This document shows, in pieces, positions 21,012 through 33,831 of a stretch of 33,831 nt of DNA; the first letter of the stretch is position 1, and each line of letters opens with the position of its first letter. A program made the translations under genes and the position numbers. The stretch comes from Planctomycetota bacterium. Its GTDB lineage: Bacteria; Planctomycetota; UBA11346. The stretch covers positions 1-33,831 of the forward strand of contig JBBRLJ010000050.1 in the NCBI GenBank assembly GCA_038231435.1. Direction: 5' to 3'. The notes beneath the pieces were generated by a model, which did no database searches, was not told the origin of the DNA, and saw only the letters and a list, made by a program, of their open reading frames with translations.

Positions 21012-21376
21012 CAAGGGGCTTCGCCCCTACGGCATGCGGCCTACCCCACGGGCTTTGTCGTGGCTCGATGTCTACGCTACGCTTCGAAATCGTCGGCGGA
21101 TCGGCTACGCCGATTATATCCGCCGACCGCCACTCGGCGCCCGGTCGCTGCGCTCCGGTTTGATAGGGGCTTCGCCCCTACGGCCTGCGGCCTACCCCAC
21201 GGGCTTTGTCAGAGTTCGCGGCGAAGCCCCGATCCAGACCGGCGGCGAAGCCGCCCGGCCGCCGAGTCCTGGTTTGCGTGAACAATGGGCGCAGCCCATC
21301 ACGCAAACTTTTTGGCCGCCTGGCGGACAAAAAGAAGGACGACAAAGGCCGTGGGGGCCCGGGGGCAAAGCCCCCG
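21012..21376 (+). repeat. Long composite structured element of repeat family 1 (core copies C 21013-21060 and D 21165-21210 plus hairpin-rich 3' module)
   Basis: Colinear with 33354-33656 and contains many hairpins. Fills the whole gap between the pilT stop and the ligase start. Confidence 0.88.
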
Positions 21377-21378
21377 TA

Positions 21379-22464
21379 CTAAACGATGCCGCCGTCGGTG
21401 ATGGAGATGCCGCGCATGGCCATGCGCAGTTCTTCGGGGCTCGGCGCGGCGGCGAGCGCCGTCTCCATGGTGATCTTCTTCTCTTTGTAGAGACGCGTCA
21501 GCACCTTGTTGTAGCTCTCGCAGCCGCCCTCCACGTCCTTGTTCAGCGCGTCCTGCACCTTCATGTCCTCGCCCTCGAGGATCATCTTCTTGATGATCGG
21601 GGTGATGAACATGGTTTCGAGCGCCGGAACCTGCGGCTTCTCCTTGTTGGTCGAGGGCAGCAGCTTCTGGTTGAGCACGCAGCGCAGATTGAAGCCGAGC
21701 GAGGTGCGCACCTGCTCCTGCTTCGCGACCGGGAAGAGATCGAGGATGCGCCCGATGGTGGGCGCGCAGCCCGAGGAATGCACGGTGCCGAACACCAGAT
21801 GCCCGGTCTCGGCCGCGGTGAGCGCGGTCTCGAAGGTCTCTGCGTCGCGCATTTCGCCAAGAAGCATGACGTCCGGATCCTCGCGCACCGCCGAGCGCAG
21901 CGCCTCGGAGAAGTTCACCACATCGAGCCCGATCTCGCGCTGGTTGATCAGCGCCTTGTCGTCGGTGAAGACGTACTCGATCGGATCCTCGATGGTGAGG
22001 ATATGGCAGCGGCGCTTGGAGTTGATGTCGTTCAGAACCGCGGCGATGGTCGTCGACTTGCCAGAGCCGGTGATGCCGCCGATCAGCACCAGGCCCTGCT
22101 CGTACGCCGCGCACTTGGCGATGTGGGCGGGCAGCTGCAGCTCCTCGTAGCTGGGGATGCGCGGCTTGACGCGACGGATGGCCGCCGAGAACTTGCCGGT
22201 CTGCTTGAAGACGTTCACGCGGAAACGCCCGCTGGCATCGAAGGCGTACGAGAAATCGCAGTAGCCGCGGGTGTCGAGGTCGTTCTTGCTGCGCTGGTTC
22301 ACCATCGGCATCAGCAGGCTGTCGGTATCCTCCTCGGTGAGCGGTGGACTCTTCATGCGCACCAGCTCGCCCGAGACGCGAAAGATCGGCGGCTCGCCCA
22401 CCTTGAGGTGGAGGTCGCTGGCGCTGTACTTCGCCATCATCGTGAACAGCTCGTGGATCTTCAT
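21379..22464 (-). CDS. PilT/PilU family type IV pilus retraction ATPase
   Basis: ASDLHL, RFRVNVF, Walker A GITGSGKS, TIEDPIE, REDPDV...GEMRD, His box AETGHLVFGTVH. Start trimmed to ATG 22464 (upstream GGAG). Confidence 0.93.
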   Translation of the reverse strand: MKIHELFTMMAKYSASDLHLKVGEPPIFRVSGELVRMKSPPLTEEDTDSLLMPMVNQRSKNDLDTRGYCDFSYAFDASGRFRVNVFKQTGKFSAAIRRVKPRIPSYEELQLPAHIAKCAAYEQGLVLIGGITGSGKSTTIAAVLNDINSKRRCHILTIEDPIEYVFTDDKALINQREIGLDVVNFSEALRSAVREDPDVMLLGEMRDAETFETALTAAETGHLVFGTVHSSGCAPTIGRILDLFPVAKQEQVRTSLGFNLRCVLNQKLLPSTNKEKPQVPALETMFITPIIKKMILEGEDMKVQDALNKDVEGGCESYNKVLTRLYKEKKITMETALAAAPSPEELRMAMRGISITDGGIV

Positions 22465-22606: not shown

Positions 22607-22727
22607 AGAAGAGGAGAAGAGGAGAAGAGGAGAAGAGGGAAGCTCGAAGCCAGAAGCCAGGCAGCCCTGGGACGATCCGAACGTGCGAACGGGAACGTCG
22701 AGCTTCCAGCTTCCAGCTTCCAACTTC
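22607..22727. repeat. (AGAAGAGG)4 followed by GAAGCYN heptamers and an inverted heptamer array
   Basis: Octamer x4 at 22607-22638. GAAGCTC GAAGCCA GAAGCCA at 22639-22659. Inverted GAGCTTC CAGCTTC CAGCTTC CAACTTC at 22700-22727. Confidence 0.85.
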
Positions 22728-22736
22728 CCTGCAGTC

Positions 22737-24679: not shown

Positions 24680-24729
24680 GAAGAGGGGCCAGAAGCTAGA
24701 AGCTAGAAGCTAGAAGCTAGAAGCTAGAA
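24680..24729. repeat. Heptamer array (GAAGCTA)5 with purine-rich lead-in
   Basis: GAAGAGGGGCCA then five GAAGCTA units at 24692-24726. Confidence 0.9.
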
Positions 24730-24794
24730 AGTGGGGACGGTATCGCGGAGGATAGACGTGCGTCTGAGCGCCGTGGTGCGGGACTTCCCCACAC

Positions 24795-25451: not shown

Positions 25452-25519
25452 CGGGGTCGCCGCGGGAAAGCGTAGGGAGACGGGGGGAGAGGGAAGGCGG
25501 GAGGGAGAGAGGAGAGAGG

Positions 25520-25677
25520 GAAGCTCGAAGCTCGAAGCTCGAAGCTCGAAGCTCGAAGCTCGAAGCTCGAAGCTCGAAGCTCGAAGCTCGAAGCTCGAAG
25601 CTCGAAGCTCGAAGCTCGAAGCTCGAAGCTAGAAGCTAGAAGCTAGAAGCTAGAAGCTAGAAGCTAGAAGCTAGAAG
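25520..25677. repeat. Heptamer tandem array (GAAGCTC)15(GAAGCTA)7
   Basis: Counted directly: 22 perfect 7-bp units plus GAAG, preceded by a purine-only tract. Short inverted copy at 25777-25792. Confidence 0.97.
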
Positions 25678-25818
25678 GGGAATCGCGGTGGTTGCGGGTT
25701 GTGACAGTGCGTTGGTTCGCTGGCTCCTGGCCTCGAGAGCGGATCGGGCACTACGCTGCGATCTTCGCTGTCACGTCGAGCTTCTGGCTTCGAACGTCTC
25801 GATTCTCCCAAGTCCCCT

Positions 25819-28128: not shown

Positions 28129-30663
28129 ATGGCCCGACACCAGGGAAAGTCCAGCAAGCACTCCAACACGCCAGGCAAGAGCCGGCCCCAGGGCGGCCGA
28201 GGCGGCGAGGCGGCCGGAGGTGGAGGTGGAAGCGGAGCTCGGTCTCAGGACGGTCGTAATTCGCAGCGTCCCATGCGCGAGCAGCTGCGCTCGCGGGTCT
28301 CCGGACTCGGAGGCCGAGGCGGTCGTGGCGGCGGCAGCGGAGCCGGTGGACGGCCCTCAGGTCCGCCACCGCCGACCCAGGCGCTCTTGAAGGCGCTCGC
28401 CGACATGCCGATGGGCGCCACCGCCAACCAGCTCGCCACCGAGATCGGTGGCGAGATCGACACCCGCGAACTCGCGATCGTGCTACGCAAGCTCGTCGAG
28501 CAGGGTCAGGTGCTCGAAGTCCGCCCCGGGCGCTACCAGGTCTCCGGCACCGGGGGCGAATTCTCGGTGATTGTCGAACCTGAAGGCGGTTCCGCGGGCG
28601 CCAAGCCCAAGGTCGGCGAGATCCAGCGCCTGCAGGCGCGCTTCCCCGATGCGCGCATCTTGCCGATCAATCCCGCCTATGCGCTCGGAGCTCACGCCGG
28701 TGACGTCGCCCAGGCGGTGGTCGGCGAGGATGGACTGGCGCTGATCACGCGCATCCTGCGCCGCGGCGGCCGCGAAGTCGTCGGCACCATCATGTTCCGT
28801 CCGACCGGCACGCTGCTCATCCCGGACAACCGCAAGGACGGCCAGCTGCCGGTGCTGAGCGCCTTCCCACGCTTCCATGACGAGTACCACGCGGGCGACC
28901 GCGTCATCGGCACCATCGCCGTGGATGCCAGCGGCCAGGCCGGAGTGCATCTGACGCGCATCCTCGGCAAGGAGACGCCAGAGGTCGCCGACTTCCGCTA
29001 CGTCTGCCTGGTGCACGACCTGCCGAAGGAGTTCCCGCCCGAGGTCGAAGAGCAGGCCAAGGCCTACCGCGACTCGCTGTCGCTCGGGTCGCGCGAGGAT
29101 CTACGCCAAAAGCTGGTCTTCACCATCGATCCGGTCACCGCGAAGGACTTCGACGACGCCATCAGCCTCGAACCGCGCCCGGGCGGTGGCTGGATCCTGG
29201 GCGTGCACATCGCCGACGTCAGCCACTACGTCACCGAGAAGTCGGCGCTCGATGCCGAGGCCGGACTGCGCGGCACCAGCTGCTACCTGATCAACCGTGT
29301 AATCCCGATGCTCCCCGAGTCGCTCTCCAACGGACTGTGCTCGCTGGTGCCGAACCGCGATCGCTATTGCCTGTCGGCGTTCCTCACCCTCGACAAGAGC
29401 TGCAACCTGATCGGCACCCGCCTGGCGGAAACCATCATCTGCAGCCGCCATCGCCTGACCTATGAAGAGGCCCTGGCCATCCTCGAGAAGCAGGACACGC
29501 CAGGCCAATGGCCGCAGGACCTGCGCCAGACGGTGACGACGGTCGGCGACATCGCCCAGACCCTGCGCCGCGCGCGCGATAAGGCGGGTGCGCTCAACCT
29601 GTTCTCGGTCGAGCACCGCTTCTCGCTGGACGTCAACGGCGTGCCCATCGAAGTCGGCCAGGAGGTCAGCGACATCTCGCACCAGCTGATCGAGGAGTGC
29701 ATGCTGCTGGCCAACCGCGCGGTCGCGGAATGGCTCGAGTCCAAGAAGCTCCCTTGCGTCTACCGCATCCACCAGGAGCCCGACCCCGAGCGCATGCAGC
29801 AGTTCGCGCAGGTGCTCGAGGCCTATGGCAAGGACGGCAGCCAGGTCACCAACCGCTTCGCGCTGCAGAAGCTGCTGTTCGAACTCGCCAAGGAGCCGCC
29901 GGCCTCACGCTTGGTGCTGAACTACCTGTGCCTGCGCTCCTTCAAGAAGGCGGTGTATTCCACCGAGAATATCGGCCACTACGCGCTCGCCTTCCGCAGC
30001 TACGCGCACTTCACCAGCCCGATCCGGCGCTATCCGGATCTGCTGGTCCACCGTCTGGTGAAACGCGGACTGAATCTGCCAGAATTCCGGAACGTCGAGA
30101 TCCGCCATGGCTACCTCGACGCGCTGGCGAAGCAGTCGACTTGGCTCGAGCAGCGCGCCGAGGGCGCCGAGCGCGATCTGCACGCGCGCAAATCGACGCG
30201 CTACCTGGCCGAACGCATGGGCGAGGTCTTCCCAGGCGTGGTGCTGATGGCGACACCAGGCGGGCTCAGCGTCCAGCTGATGGAGACCGGCATGGAGGGC
30301 TTCGTGCCCATGCGCGAGCTCAAGGACGACTTCTACAGCTACGACTCGCAGCGCATGGCGCTCATCGGCCGGCACAGCTCGCGGGTGATCGGCGTCGGCA
30401 TCGAGCTCGATGTGCAGGTCGTCGCGGTCGACATCGATCGCAGCGATGTGGTGCTGGGATTGTCGGATGCGGGATTGGGCAATGCCGGAAAAGGCGGGAA
30501 GCCCGCAAGCAAGTCGCTGCAGGGGCGCGGCGGGGACGCGCGCGGGGGACAGCAGCAGCAGCGCGGCGGAGGAGGCGGAGGCGGTGATCGCAAGCGGGGG
30601 GATACCCAGCGGGTCGAGAAGGAACGGCGCAGGGATGAAGGGAAGAAGAAGCGGAGGCGGTGA
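28129..30663 (+). CDS. rnr: Ribonuclease R (RNB family) with Gly/Arg-rich termini
   Basis: FTIDPVTAKDFDDAIS, VHIADVSHYV, LIEECMLLAN, HFTSPIRRYPDLLVHR, C-terminal S1 domain and basic tail. Confidence 0.93.
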   Translation: MARHQGKSSKHSNTPGKSRPQGGRGGEAAGGGGGSGARSQDGRNSQRPMREQLRSRVSGLGGRGGRGGGSGAGGRPSGPPPPTQALLKALADMPMGATANQLATEIGGEIDTRELAIVLRKLVEQGQVLEVRPGRYQVSGTGGEFSVIVEPEGGSAGAKPKVGEIQRLQARFPDARILPINPAYALGAHAGDVAQAVVGEDGLALITRILRRGGREVVGTIMFRPTGTLLIPDNRKDGQLPVLSAFPRFHDEYHAGDRVIGTIAVDASGQAGVHLTRILGKETPEVADFRYVCLVHDLPKEFPPEVEEQAKAYRDSLSLGSREDLRQKLVFTIDPVTAKDFDDAISLEPRPGGGWILGVHIADVSHYVTEKSALDAEAGLRGTSCYLINRVIPMLPESLSNGLCSLVPNRDRYCLSAFLTLDKSCNLIGTRLAETIICSRHRLTYEEALAILEKQDTPGQWPQDLRQTVTTVGDIAQTLRRARDKAGALNLFSVEHRFSLDVNGVPIEVGQEVSDISHQLIEECMLLANRAVAEWLESKKLPCVYRIHQEPDPERMQQFAQVLEAYGKDGSQVTNRFALQKLLFELAKEPPASRLVLNYLCLRSFKKAVYSTENIGHYALAFRSYAHFTSPIRRYPDLLVHRLVKRGLNLPEFRNVEIRHGYLDALAKQSTWLEQRAEGAERDLHARKSTRYLAERMGEVFPGVVLMATPGGLSVQLMETGMEGFVPMRELKDDFYSYDSQRMALIGRHSSRVIGVGIELDVQVVAVDIDRSDVVLGLSDAGLGNAGKGGKPASKSLQGRGGDARGGQQQQRGGGGGGGDRKRGDTQRVEKERRRDEGKKKRRR

Positions 30664-30667
30664 GACG

Positions 30668-30684
30668 GCTAGAAGCTAGAAGCT
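30668..30684. repeat. Short GAAGCTA heptamer run just after the rnr stop
   Basis: GCTAGAAGCTAGAAGCT. Confidence 0.7.
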
Positions 30685-30724
30685 GGGCACGGTTTTTGTG
30701 GGGCTCTCCTCGGAATCGCGATCG

Positions 30725-30819
30725 TAGCGAAGGTGCTCGCAGTCAAGGCCGATCGGCGGGGCGCCGATTGCCGCGGAGGAACCGCGGTTGGCAGCCTTGA
30801 CAGCTGCGCGCCTTCGCTG
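30725..30819 (+). ncRNA. Candidate structured leader RNA, copy 1, upstream of four-helix-bundle gene A
   Basis: Pairings AGCGAAGGTG/CGCCTTCGCT, CGCA/TGCG and GTCAAGGC/GCCTTGAC enclose hairpins GATCGGCG-GGG-CGCCGATT and GCCGCGG-AGGAA-CCGCGGT. Covaries with copy 2. Confidence 0.65.
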
Positions 30820-30845
30820 GGTTTTTGGCGAAGGAGAGCAACACC

Positions 30846-31190
30846 ATGGCTCGGTATCAAGATTTCATCGTGTGGCAGAAAGCGCATCAATTCGCTATCA
30901 GGATCGACGCGGTGGCTCCGCTGTTGCGGTGCGACGCGGCTGGCCAGCTGCGGCGGTCGGCGGCTTCCATCCCTGACAACATCGCCGAAGGCTCTGAACG
31001 CGGCAGCGCGCCCCAGTTCGCGCACTTCCTCGCGATCGCCCACGGCTCCTGCGCGGAGGCGCAGAGCCAGCTGCGCCGCGCGCACGCGTGCGGTTATCTC
31101 GGGCGCGAAGCTTTCCTCGATCTCATCGATCTCGCCCAGCAGATCGGCTGGATGCTCGGCGCGATGCGCCGGACGGTAGTCACGACGTGA
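30846..31190 (+). CDS. Four helix bundle protein (23S rRNA IVP-like / Avd-like fold), paralog A, 114 aa
   Basis: Y.D..VWQKA, QLRRSAASIPDNIAEG..R, F..FL.IA.GS.AE family signature. AAGGAG SD at 30831-30836. Confidence 0.9.
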   Translation: MARYQDFIVWQKAHQFAIRIDAVAPLLRCDAAGQLRRSAASIPDNIAEGSERGSAPQFAHFLAIAHGSCAEAQSQLRRAHACGYLGREAFLDLIDLAQQIGWMLGAMRRTVVTT

Positions 31191-31202
31191 TTGCGTTGCG
31201 CA

Positions 31203-31556
31203 TCAGGTGCCGCGCCCCAGTACGCGGATGAGGACCGTGAGCATCTTCCCGGTGCTCTCGAGGCGATGGAATAGTTCGTCGCGTAGGGGCGCCTCGACCA
31301 GGGCGCTATCGGACGCCTCGTACAGATGGCTGCGCAACTCGTCGCACGATGAGCGCGCGTATCTGAGGTACCGGCGGAAGTCCGCGTCGCTGCCGCGGCT
31401 GCTGCCTTCTGCGATGTTCGCCGACACCGAGTTCGCCGCGCGCTCCATCTGATCTACCAGATCCCGCCGCCGCCCGAAACCCGCGACCACCTCCCGCGTC
31501 ACCCGCGCCATGATGCGCGCCTCCTGCCAAACCCGCAGATCCTCGAAGCGTTTCAT
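31203..31556 (-). CDS. Four helix bundle protein (23S rRNA IVP-like / Avd-like fold), paralog B, 117 aa
   Basis: FEDLRVWQEA, DQMERAANSVSANIAEG..R, F.RYL.YAR.S..E. AAGGAG SD at 31568-31563. Start trimmed to ATG 31556. Confidence 0.92.
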   Translation of the reverse strand: MKRFEDLRVWQEARIMARVTREVVAGFGRRRDLVDQMERAANSVSANIAEGSSRGSDADFRRYLRYARSSCDELRSHLYEASDSALVEAPLRDELFHRLESTGKMLTVLIRVLGRGT

Positions 31557-31580
31557 GATGTTCTCCTTTCCCACACCAAC

Positions 31581-31684
31581 CCGCGAAACGCGCGCAGCTG
31601 TCAAGGCTGGCCGCCCCGGCCACGGCGGTTCCTCCGCCGCAAGGCCGCTCCGGCCGCAGGCCTTGACTGCGAGCACGTCCGCGA
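31581..31684 (-). ncRNA. Candidate structured leader RNA, copy 2, upstream of four-helix-bundle gene B
   Basis: Minus-strand pairings CGCGGACGTG/CGCGTTTCGCG and GTCAAGGC/GCCTTGAC enclose GGCCG-GAG-CGGCC, GCGGCGG-AGGAA-CCGCCGT and GGCCG-GGG-CGGCC. Confidence 0.65.
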
Positions 31685-31746
31685 CGATCAGGAATTAAGG
31701 AGAAGACGTCCAAGCCAAAAGGAACCAAACGAACCACAACATCGAT

Positions 31747-31780
31747 GCCAGCAGCCAGAAGCCACAGAAGCCAGAAGCCC
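31747..31780. repeat. Degenerate GAAGCCA heptamer run
   Basis: GCCAGCAGCCAGAAGCCACAGAAGCCAGAAGCCC. Confidence 0.7.
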
Positions 31781-31852: not shown

Positions 31853-32782
31853 ATGCCCACCGCCCTCGTCTTCCCCGGCCAAGGCGCTCAGTACATCGGC
31901 ATGGGCAAGGATCTCGCCGCGCATGTCCCAGCAGCACGCGCTCTACTCGAGGAAGCCGACCGAATCTTGGGCTTCCCGCTCTCGCGCGTCATTGCCGAAG
32001 GTCCCGAAGAACAGCTGATGCGCACCGACGTCAGTCAGCCGGCGATCCTGGTGTCGAGCCTGATGTCCTACGAGGCGCTGAAAGCCCGGAAGACGCCTGA
32101 CTTCGTCGCCACTGCTGGCCTCAGCCTGGGCGAATACACCGCGCTCGTGGCTGCCGGCGCCCTGGGCTTCGCCGACGCGGTCAAGCTGGTGCGACTGCGC
32201 GGCGAAGCCATGCAGGCAGCGGCCGAGGCGGTGAAGAGCGGCATGGTTGCGCTGATCGGCGCGGACGAAGCCAGCGCGCAGAAACTGTGCGACGCGTGCG
32301 CGAGTGGCGAGACCCTGCAGGTCGCGAACCTCAACAGCCCCGGACAGGTGGTGATCTCAGGCGCCGCCGGCGCCTGCGCGCGCGCGGTCGAGATGGTCCA
32401 GGCCAAGGGCAAGGAGCTGGGCATGCGCAAGGCGATCGCGCTGAACGTCGCCGGCGCCTTCCACAGCGCGCTGATGGCGCCGGCCGCCGAGCGCTTGCGC
32501 GCGGCGCTCGCGGTCGCGCGCATCTCGGACCCCAGGGTGCCGGTGTATGCGAACGTGCACGCGCGACCGGTGACCAAGGCCGCCGAGATTCCCGAGCTGC
32601 TGGTAGCGCAGCTGACCAAGCCGGTGCGCTGGGCGGATTCGGTGGTGGCGATGAATCAGGCCGGCATCACGGAATTCCTCGAGCTCGGGCCAGGCAAGAC
32701 GCTGTCGGGCATGATCGCCCGCACCGTGACCGGCGCCGCGTGCCGCAATCTCGATGGCGCGGCGGACGCCGCGGGCTTCTGA
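31853..32782 (+). CDS. fabD: Malonyl CoA-ACP transacylase
   Basis: FPGQGAQ..GMG, QPAI, GLSLGEY, RG..MQ, N.NSPGQ.VISG, AFHS, ELGPGK. SD AAGGAG at 31838-31843. Confidence 0.96.
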   Translation: MPTALVFPGQGAQYIGMGKDLAAHVPAARALLEEADRILGFPLSRVIAEGPEEQLMRTDVSQPAILVSSLMSYEALKARKTPDFVATAGLSLGEYTALVAAGALGFADAVKLVRLRGEAMQAAAEAVKSGMVALIGADEASAQKLCDACASGETLQVANLNSPGQVVISGAAGACARAVEMVQAKGKELGMRKAIALNVAGAFHSALMAPAAERLRAALAVARISDPRVPVYANVHARPVTKAAEIPELLVAQLTKPVRWADSVVAMNQAGITEFLELGPGKTLSGMIARTVTGAACRNLDGAADAAGF

Positions 32783-33353: not shown

Positions 33354-33831
33354 CAAGGGCTTCGCCCCTGCGGCCATGCGGGCCTACCCCACGGGCTTTG
33401 TCGTGGCTCGTTTTCGCCGTCCCGGCGAAAACGTGGGTGGATCGGCTGCGCCGATTGTATCCGCCCATCGCCACTCGGCGCCCGCCCCCTCGCGGAGCGA
33501 TGGGGCCCCCGACCAATCCGGCGGCGCAGCCGCCGCGGCCGCCGAGTCCTGGTTTGCGTGAATAATGGGCGTAGCCCATCACGCAAACTTTTTGGCCGCC
33601 CGGCGGACAAAAAGAAGGACGACAAAGGACGTGGGGGGCCGGGGGCAAAGCCCCCGCACAAAAAGCGGCCGCCGAGACCTGGTTTGCGTGAATAATGGGC
33701 GTAGCCCATCACACAAACATTTTGGCCGCCCGGCGGACAAAAAGAAGGACGACAAAGGACGTGGGGGGCCGGGGGCAAAGCCCCCGCACAAAAAGCGGCC
33801 GCCGAGACCTGGTTTGCGTGAATAATGGGCG
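33354..33831 (+). repeat. Long composite structured element of repeat family 1 (copy E) with a 130-bp tandem expansion, truncated by right window edge
   Basis: Core at 33355-33403. Colinear with 21012-21376. CCTGGTTTGCGTGAATAATGGGCG recurs at 33548, 33678 and 33808 (period 130). Confidence 0.92.

Follow-up and report, generated by a model that had tools for sequence, protein, structure and literature searches.

Hairpin Leaders of Chromosomal PF05635 Genes as Probable Single-Stranded DNA Promoters Akin to Hairpins of Plasmid and ICE Establishment Genes

A family of chromosomal four-helix-bundle genes is headed by conserved hairpin leaders, and we consider it probable that each leader is an ssDNA promoter, akin to the hairpins that precede plasmid and ICE establishment genes and silent both in double-stranded DNA and in read-through RNA. 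This model is built on folds, covariation and promoter geometry. The leader most likely works like an ssp promoter, a likeness of function that does not by itself place it in any of the ssp classes 1–3. It is neither an IVS, nor a part of a DGR, nor a member of an Rfam family.

The window, by which we mean the whole 33,831-nt stretch of DNA analysed, carries two such genes. Gene 1 (30846..31190, + strand; 114 aa, pI 8.6) and gene 2 (31203..31556, − strand; 117 aa, pI 9.5) are convergent, with 12 nt separating their stop codons. The sequence-only reading had described them as four-helix-bundle genes whose products are about one third alike. HMM searches indeed place both in PF05635 (E 2.5e-27 and 9.3e-25; 95.6 and 87.3 bits against a curated cut-off of 33.8) and in TIGR02436 (91.3 and 81.6 bits, cut-off 24), and the measured identity is 34.5%. 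The pair lies between two host genes, an RNase R/II family gene (rnr, 28129..30663, +; PF00773, PF00575), which is the likely source of read-through RNA, and a gene for a FabD-like acyltransferase (31853..32782, +; PF00698). With the outer, SD-pairing helix included, leader 1 spans 30703..30839 (+) and leader 2 31561..31704 (−). Both fold, and they score 97 and 92 bits, respectively, with R2, one of two covariance models (R1 and R2) that were trained only on four-helix-bundle leaders.

Short 7-nt tandem arrays are found between the rnr stop codon and leader 1 (30668..30686, +) and between leader 2 and fabD (31748..31779, +); each has 11/14 period-7 matches and falls just under the cut-off of 12/14. 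Other period-7 arrays of the window, at 22692-22730, 24683-24734 and 25514-25680, are intergenic and have neither a hairpin leader nor a four-helix-bundle gene. The window also contains an element of 130 nt, in tandem at 33535-33831 and again at 21256-21383, with copies that are 97.7% identical, the third being cut by the window end. In the genome, blastn finds it 154 times on 56 contigs, with 118 of these hits reaching 100 nt or more. It represents an intergenic repeat family of its own, which is very abundant and unconnected with the four-helix-bundle cassette.

The cassette is dispersed through the genome (5.2 Mb, 67% GC, 87.6% complete), which holds 17 PF05635 matches at 11 loci. Convergent two-gene pairs make up six of these loci; at two others a single gene is faced by a leader that has a remnant or no gene behind it, and the last three are single genes. 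The proposed link between leader and gene extends to the whole genome, since a hairpin heads all 16 genes that have assembled upstream DNA. The leaders are always directed into the gene at a fixed spacing from the SD, and a pattern search of the genome returns 21 full hairpins. Facing leaders without genes are present on contigs C14 and C28. These collapsed cassettes (C14 82011-82181, locus L018; C28 36480-36723, locus L019) have their leaders fused or joined by deletion and their genes lost, and a remnant with the 5′ arm only is found on contig C25 at 46401 (locus L022). One gene pair occurs both at C28 44833-45874 and at C62 23584-24336, in opposite orientation and with a recognisably related junction, which suggests that the two-gene unit may have been copied whole. 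All 14 loci examined lie between ordinary chromosomal genes, with protein-coding flanks. Period-7 arrays, the commonest imperfect tandem arrays in the genome (120, versus 9–73 for other periods), are located upstream of 11/24 leaders versus 5/1000 random windows.

The four-helix-bundle genes are under purifying selection, with dN/dS of 0.10–0.39 in 21 paralog pairs of more than 65% protein identity, and the leader arms are still 86–97% identical where dS is 0.45–0.93. The proteins have a median pI of 9.4, and their closest solved relative is the pentameric XCC0516 (2GSC, E 1e-22).

Both leaders of the window fold, as had been claimed, with z-scores against shuffles of −4.2 (copy 1) and −3.2 (copy 2) on the sense strand and of −6.0 and −4.5 on the antisense strand. 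Their arms are 88% identical, and the blocks reported as shared upstream of the two genes were recovered at the same positions, by alignment and as the inverted repeats I1, I2 and I7. In the MFE fold of copy 2, the inner hairpins are nested in another way than had been drawn. It is important to point out that the structure had been said to stop about 12 nt before the SD, which is wrong: an outer helix that was missed (30703-30710 with 30832-30839 in leader 1; 31697-31704 with 31561-31568 in leader 2) pairs the SD itself. The AAGGAG of gene 1 (30831..30836, +) is predicted to be buried in the full-length fold, and that of gene 2 (31568-31563, −) is paired by the outer helix of leader 2.

The differences between the two copies were thought to keep the pairing, and covariation holds in larger leader sets. 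In 38 leaders from several genera, 13/22 core pairs change on both sides and 94.9% of the cells are paired, compared to 28–45% in slid controls; in 14 copies of this genome the double changes amount to 20/46 pairs, and those of the outer helix to 5/7, all these counts being inflated by related copies and not independent, with both structures hand-drawn from the same sequences. The hairpin was not recognised as a known riboswitch, and the window has no Rfam match at the gathering score. By E-value, the best window matches are RT-3 (18.5 bits against a gathering score of 40.5) and radC (13.5 against 40).

Among the alternatives to the promoter, the one that survives best is that the hairpin is mainly a 5′ RNA leader, which buries the SD and whose internal loop is bound by the basic, Avd-like pentamer, giving autoregulation or an RNP. 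The promoter-like bases described below would then be a relic of plasmid ancestry or protein contacts. The SD core is predicted to be paired in 42/45 leader folds, which is the occlusion expected of an autoregulatory RNA leader. For gene 1, the calculated probability that the SD is unpaired is at most 0.08 in the full-length RNA versus at least 0.95 in a transcript starting near 30829, and overall it is at most 0.10 in read-through RNA and 0.82–1.0 in a transcript that starts in the 3′ arm. The covarying outer helix and the high protein pI also fit this alternative, as does the binding of DGR RNA stem-loops by Avd, described in 10.1101/2023.10.23.563531. Leader and protein similarity are moreover correlated (rho 0.49), but this is what duplication as one unit would give.

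G–U pairs had been taken to favour RNA of the sense strand. This stands for the sporadic wobbles of the variable spacer, where the gene-linked leaders have 10 sense G–T versus 3 A–C and thus tolerate sense-strand wobble; the unlinked copies show the opposite, with 6 G–T versus 18 A–C. It does not stand for the commonest G–U pair, which is a single inherited position, found in 33/37 leaders and also in 61/77 non-linked copies. SD burial and the sense-favouring sporadic wobbles make an RNA role plausible, and of the earlier proposal of a cis-leader or mobility signal there remains a conserved covarying structure that is tied to four-helix-bundle genes and possibly to mobility.

With DNA parameters, the folding energies of the antisense strand are −46.1 and −43.2 kcal mol−1 for the two window leaders, with a mean z of −6.5 over 30 leaders, so that there is the stable template-strand stem-loop expected of an ssDNA promoter; the sense strand folds nearly as well. 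The antisense z is below the sense z in 21/30 leaders, whereas by raw RNA energy the sense strand is the more stable one in 22/30, which speaks against the promoter. Regarding the loops, a sense GNRA tetraloop is seen in 0/45 leaders and cUNCGg in 3, which counts against an RNA leader. Antisense C[GNA]G triloops are present in 24/31 leaders of relatives (sense 2/31) and in 44/76 unlinked copies (sense 0/76). In DNA, such mini-hairpins have a far higher stability than in RNA (PMC13037366). The 14 tested leaders of this genome have GGG, GAG or TGG loops, with no GNA triloop on either strand, which counts against the promoter.

The invariant stem carries TTGAC on both arms. On the antisense 5′ arm, the signature TTGACN-N14-nAnnnT is present in 45/49 gene-linked leaders (three of the 49 rows are mis-anchored and counted as misses), as compared to 0/49 on the sense 3′ arm at spacers of 13–19; as background, 65 of the 779 CCTTGAC sites in the genome have it. 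In leader 1, the −35-like TTGACT (30741..30746, −) forms the non-template side of the invariant stem and is 14 nt from a −10-like TACGAT (30721..30726, −) in the antisense 5′ arm, whose T is paired and whose bases from A onward are unpaired in the antisense DNA fold. This hexamer is supported by family conservation in addition to its sequence and the fold. The 3′ arm has TTGACA (30797..30802, +), the complement of which is the template side of the −35 duplex, and no −10 match follows it on that arm. Leader 2 has, by sequence, a −35-like TTGACT (31663..31668, +) on the antisense copy of its 5′ arm and, 14 nt away, a −10-like GACGAT (31683..31688, +), in which A-11 and T-7 are kept and position −12 is G.

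In 37 type-A leaders, position −12 is Watson–Crick paired in 31 and covarying, while −11 is paired in none and −7 in one. This matches the way in which sigma70 reads the −10 element, namely as duplex to −12 and with A-11 and T-7, its most conserved bases, flipped out of the non-template strand (PMC4496690). A −35/−10 pair with a spacer of 14 nt is rebuilt by the fold, and none faces the gene in double-stranded DNA, as would be expected for an ssDNA promoter. A number of points speak against a promoter. The usual −35/−10 spacer is 17 nt, and 14 is short. The strict TAnnnT is seen in only 14/49 leaders, and the unlinked copies have nAnnnT at a spacer of 14–16 in only 34/77 cases. R1 and R2 miss all validated pESBL promoters, and homology in sequence to classes 1–3 is thus not found with these models. 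The cassettes, moreover, are located between housekeeping genes, and in the 87.6% complete genome no relaxase, TrwC or ArdC was found, the sole trace of conjugative machinery being a coupling-protein fragment of 102 nt where a contig ends.

The sequence-only reading envisaged an RNA possibly bound by its cognate protein. A partner RNA specific to this protein is not supported, because the same core precedes unrelated plasmid and ICE establishment genes, the invariant bases spell an antisense −35/−10, and the loops of the relatives are DNA-type GNA without sense GNRA. A hairpin-core pattern gives at least 128 loci over species genomes. The expectation that hits would be located upstream of PF05635 genes is borne out for only 28/122 distinct matches among those listed. 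Among the matches listed, 74 downstream ORFs (from 101 candidates in 80 long loci) were scanned: 19 are PF05635, another 19 are DUF932 (7), ArdC (5), RadC (3), DUF2958 (2) and antirestriction (2) genes, 8 belong to other families, and 28 have no family match. DUF932, ArdC, RadC, DUF2958 and antirestriction genes typify the establishment regions of plasmids and ICEs. For antirestriction genes this location is described in PMC11541004 section 8 and PMC12672017 section 17.

A Variovorax copy of the core matches 299 plasmid records, 262 of which are predicted conjugative. In one example it stands ahead of a DUF2958 gene, within an integrase-DUF932-ParB-repA element; in another it heads a RadC-type gene on pYAZ2, at a distance of about 9 kb from trwC and in the same orientation as trwC. 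Trained on four-helix-bundle leaders only, R1 and R2 detect the hairpin of pYAZ2 with 33.5 and 47 bits; two ICE copies score about 20 bits. A blastn search of window copy 1 against plasmids yields three chance-level matches, none of them real, which is a further point against the promoter, and viral contigs give one pattern match, upstream of an ORF that by eye is DUF932-like.

Some other copies of the core deserve mention. At three acidobacteriotal loci (L088, L200, L202) it precedes ORFs that by eye resemble sigma-70-family factors, and at five others (L086, L089, L113, L118, L125) there is a multicopy subtype followed by sequence that, again by eye, is IS-end-like. An alphaproteobacterial subtype (L093, L095, L097, L112, L119, L121, L150, L155 and others) has no clear downstream gene and is mostly without the −10 signature; it is perhaps a small non-autonomous repeat or a set of decayed copies.

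Among the relatives, R2 matches 18/41 genomes of the family, and 17 of these 18 also carry PF05635 genes; 8 of the 41 have a PF05635 gene but no hairpin, and 15 have neither. Outside the family, 3/144 genomes of the phylum are matched under strict filters. Only one of them, G046, is credible, with three leader copies before divergent four-helix-bundle ORFs; in all three there are 3 nt more near the −35 and 2 fewer near the −10, and the spacing is kept at 15. The matches in G033 and G049 lie inside coding DNA and are spurious. Of the PF05635 loci of relatives, 9/29 have the leader, all in the same family, and 20/29 lack it, which shows that the PF05635 protein does not generally need a leader; many of the leaderless loci have 7-mer arrays only. 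In a protein tree of 77 rows, 54 are leader-bearing by regular expression, 6 of the other 23 are misses of that expression which the models match, and 15 of the remaining 17 rows fall in one weakly supported group. A genome of another family, G032, has 52 PF05635 matches without a leader (locus L042), many with internal stops, and this is a separate, decaying expansion.

The leaderless loci, the unrelated protein families behind the core, and invariant bases that fit −35/−10 elements at fixed spacing on the opposite strand together weigh against a mainly RNA leader, and we judge that alternative to be rather unlikely.

It is still less likely, though worth considering, that the hairpin is a cis-acting mobility signal, i.e. 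a site of second-strand priming, a replication roadblock, or a recombination or cleavage end, with the inverted leaders as the ends of an element. Such a role is compatible with promoter activity and may accompany it. The inverted leaders do bracket the gene pair, facing leaders without genes remain at C14 and C28, and several loci carry the two-gene unit; furthermore, ssp transcripts can act as primers of synthesis, and ssp2 causes it to stall (10.64898/2026.01.09.698686). Against this stand the three single genes with one leader each, and the constant orientation of the leaders toward the gene at fixed SD spacing. In the 87.6% complete genome, no reverse transcriptase (PF00078) was found, and the link to RAYT/IS200 consists of one weak Y1-transposase match. 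RT is not found in four other multi-copy cassette genomes either, and its presence in 28/41 family genomes does not track the cassette. No empty site could be identified, as 0/21 other fabD loci have rnr or a PF05635 gene within their 1.5-kb flanks; synteny is thus lost and the insertion boundary unreadable.

Least likely of all is that the boxes constitute an ordinary outward double-stranded promoter for neighbouring host genes after insertion, with the hairpin silencing the passenger gene: TTGACT-N14-GACGAT of leader 2 does face fabD on the + strand, but the boxes of leader 1 would direct antisense transcription of rnr, promoters with a 14-nt spacer are poor when fully duplex, and neither the stop of the pairing exactly at −12 nor the orientation before establishment genes is explained.

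We return to the ssDNA-promoter reading and compare the leaders with systems that are already known. For the class 2 and 3 ssp promoters of pESBL, starts were mapped by 5′RACE (PMC12672017 section 17). On their antisense 5′ arms we assign TTGCAT-N15-TAAGAT and TTGCAT-N15-TAACGT, boxes that may differ from those of the paper itself. By our own reading, they share with the leaders a template-strand stem-loop, a TTG-type −35 in duplex and a downstream duplex, with TAnnnT 15 nt off on the antisense 5′ arm and mismatches opposite. A block like CAAGGGT-CGCTTCGCCGC is moreover common to class 2 and to acidobacterial copies of the core. The leaders differ in giving no covariance-model match, in their spacer of 14 and in a much shorter inner region. 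Their outer helix covers the SD, which is not the case in class 2. In addition, they are chromosomal, multicopy and located between housekeeping genes (rnr/fabD), unlike the pESBL ssp, while homologues elsewhere head leading-type genes. The class 1 Frpo/ssi hairpins of F and ColIb-P9 (PMC9849209, PMC11541004) resemble what is proposed here in that the hairpin rebuilds −35/−10 and double-stranded DNA shuts it off. They are long A/T-tract stems with no visible sequence likeness to the leaders, and R1 and R2 give no match to the pESBL class 1 copies.

The hairpins before radC, DUF2958, DUF932 and ardC of plasmids and ICEs have the same GTCAAGG/CCTTGAC stem and mismatched spacer as the leaders, with a −10-like hexamer at 15–16 nt. 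They differ in their downstream genes and in wobbles that favour the antisense strand more clearly. By their gene order, we take the ICEs in question to be Tn4371-like. We found no paper in which these hairpins are tested. The Rfam radC RNA motif (RF01754) takes its name from radC, which the core precedes among other genes; its weak match (13.5 bits versus 40) is on the antisense strand, and it has no match in 20 homologous loci.

Two other known systems involve the same or a similar protein. The 23S rRNA IVS with an S23p/PF05635 ORF (PMC4990558) shares with the cassette the protein family, selfishness and structured flanks, and its ORF is apparently silent in ordinary transcripts, as proposed here. 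The cassette is found outside rRNA genes, the window having given no match to rRNA; its genes have a local hairpin each and are under purifying selection, while the Coxiella IVS ORF is decaying. As for the DGRs, PF05635 resembles Avd (10.1101/2023.10.23.563531 and PMC10053308), although Avd is not a sequence match in the homologue search, where XCC0516 is the best solved relative. The stems bound by Avd are about 9 bp with tetraloops. In the cassette, the hairpin is instead upstream of the gene, and the genome has yielded no RT that would make it a DGR.

On the basis of these comparisons, the following two-state mechanism can be suggested. In the resident, double-stranded state there would be no promoter toward the gene, and host read-through RNA would fold with its SD buried. 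When the template strand becomes single-stranded, it could fold back on itself, such that TTGAC forms the −35 duplex, the unpaired −10 element with A-11 and T-7 comes from the antisense 5′ arm, and the outer helices provide the downstream duplex. A sigma70-type polymerase might then start near 30830 to give a short mRNA. Begun in the 3′ arm, this transcript would lack the anti-SD arm, and its SD would thus be free. Since the convergent pair has one unit per strand, exposure of either strand in single-stranded form could switch on one of the two genes. The strand signals are mixed, as would be expected if the RNA fold and the antisense DNA fold were both under selection. The ssDNA could come from transformation, from conjugative chromosome transfer, or from an intermediate that arises as the cassette spreads. 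The genome encodes ComEC and DprA, but of 14 control genomes 10 and 11, respectively, have them too, and they lend little weight to natural transformation. It is important to note that the promoter activity, the start site, the ssDNA source and the role of the protein in spread are what we infer in this mechanism.

The role of the protein can only be guessed at. It is a basic homologue of the pentameric XCC0516, itself Avd-like, and by this analogy it might bind ssDNA or RNA during establishment; the resemblance of XCC0516 to nucleic-acid-binding Avd is noted in PMC10053308. A wider scenario, which we put forward tentatively and hold to be possible rather than probable, is that a selfish chromosomal cassette captured a plasmid-type ssDNA promoter. 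The Avd-like protein would then be made only on single-stranded arrival, independently of the strand in the case of convergent pairs, and would aid survival or copying into intergenic sites without a recombinase or RT of its own. No paper that connects PF05635 genes with a leader or an ssDNA promoter was found in our search, subscription papers and bioRxiv supplements being outside its range.

As far as the literature found goes, ssDNA promoters have so far been shown on conjugative plasmids only. If the present proposal is true, ssDNA-promoter control would extend to the chromosome, to dozens of gene copies, and to a compact, covarying form. The time at which the PF05635 protein is produced would also be known, which would provide a handle on the function of the protein and on the spread of its genes. 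The hairpin itself, a 140-nt element, belongs to a family that is shared with the establishment genes of many plasmids and ICEs.
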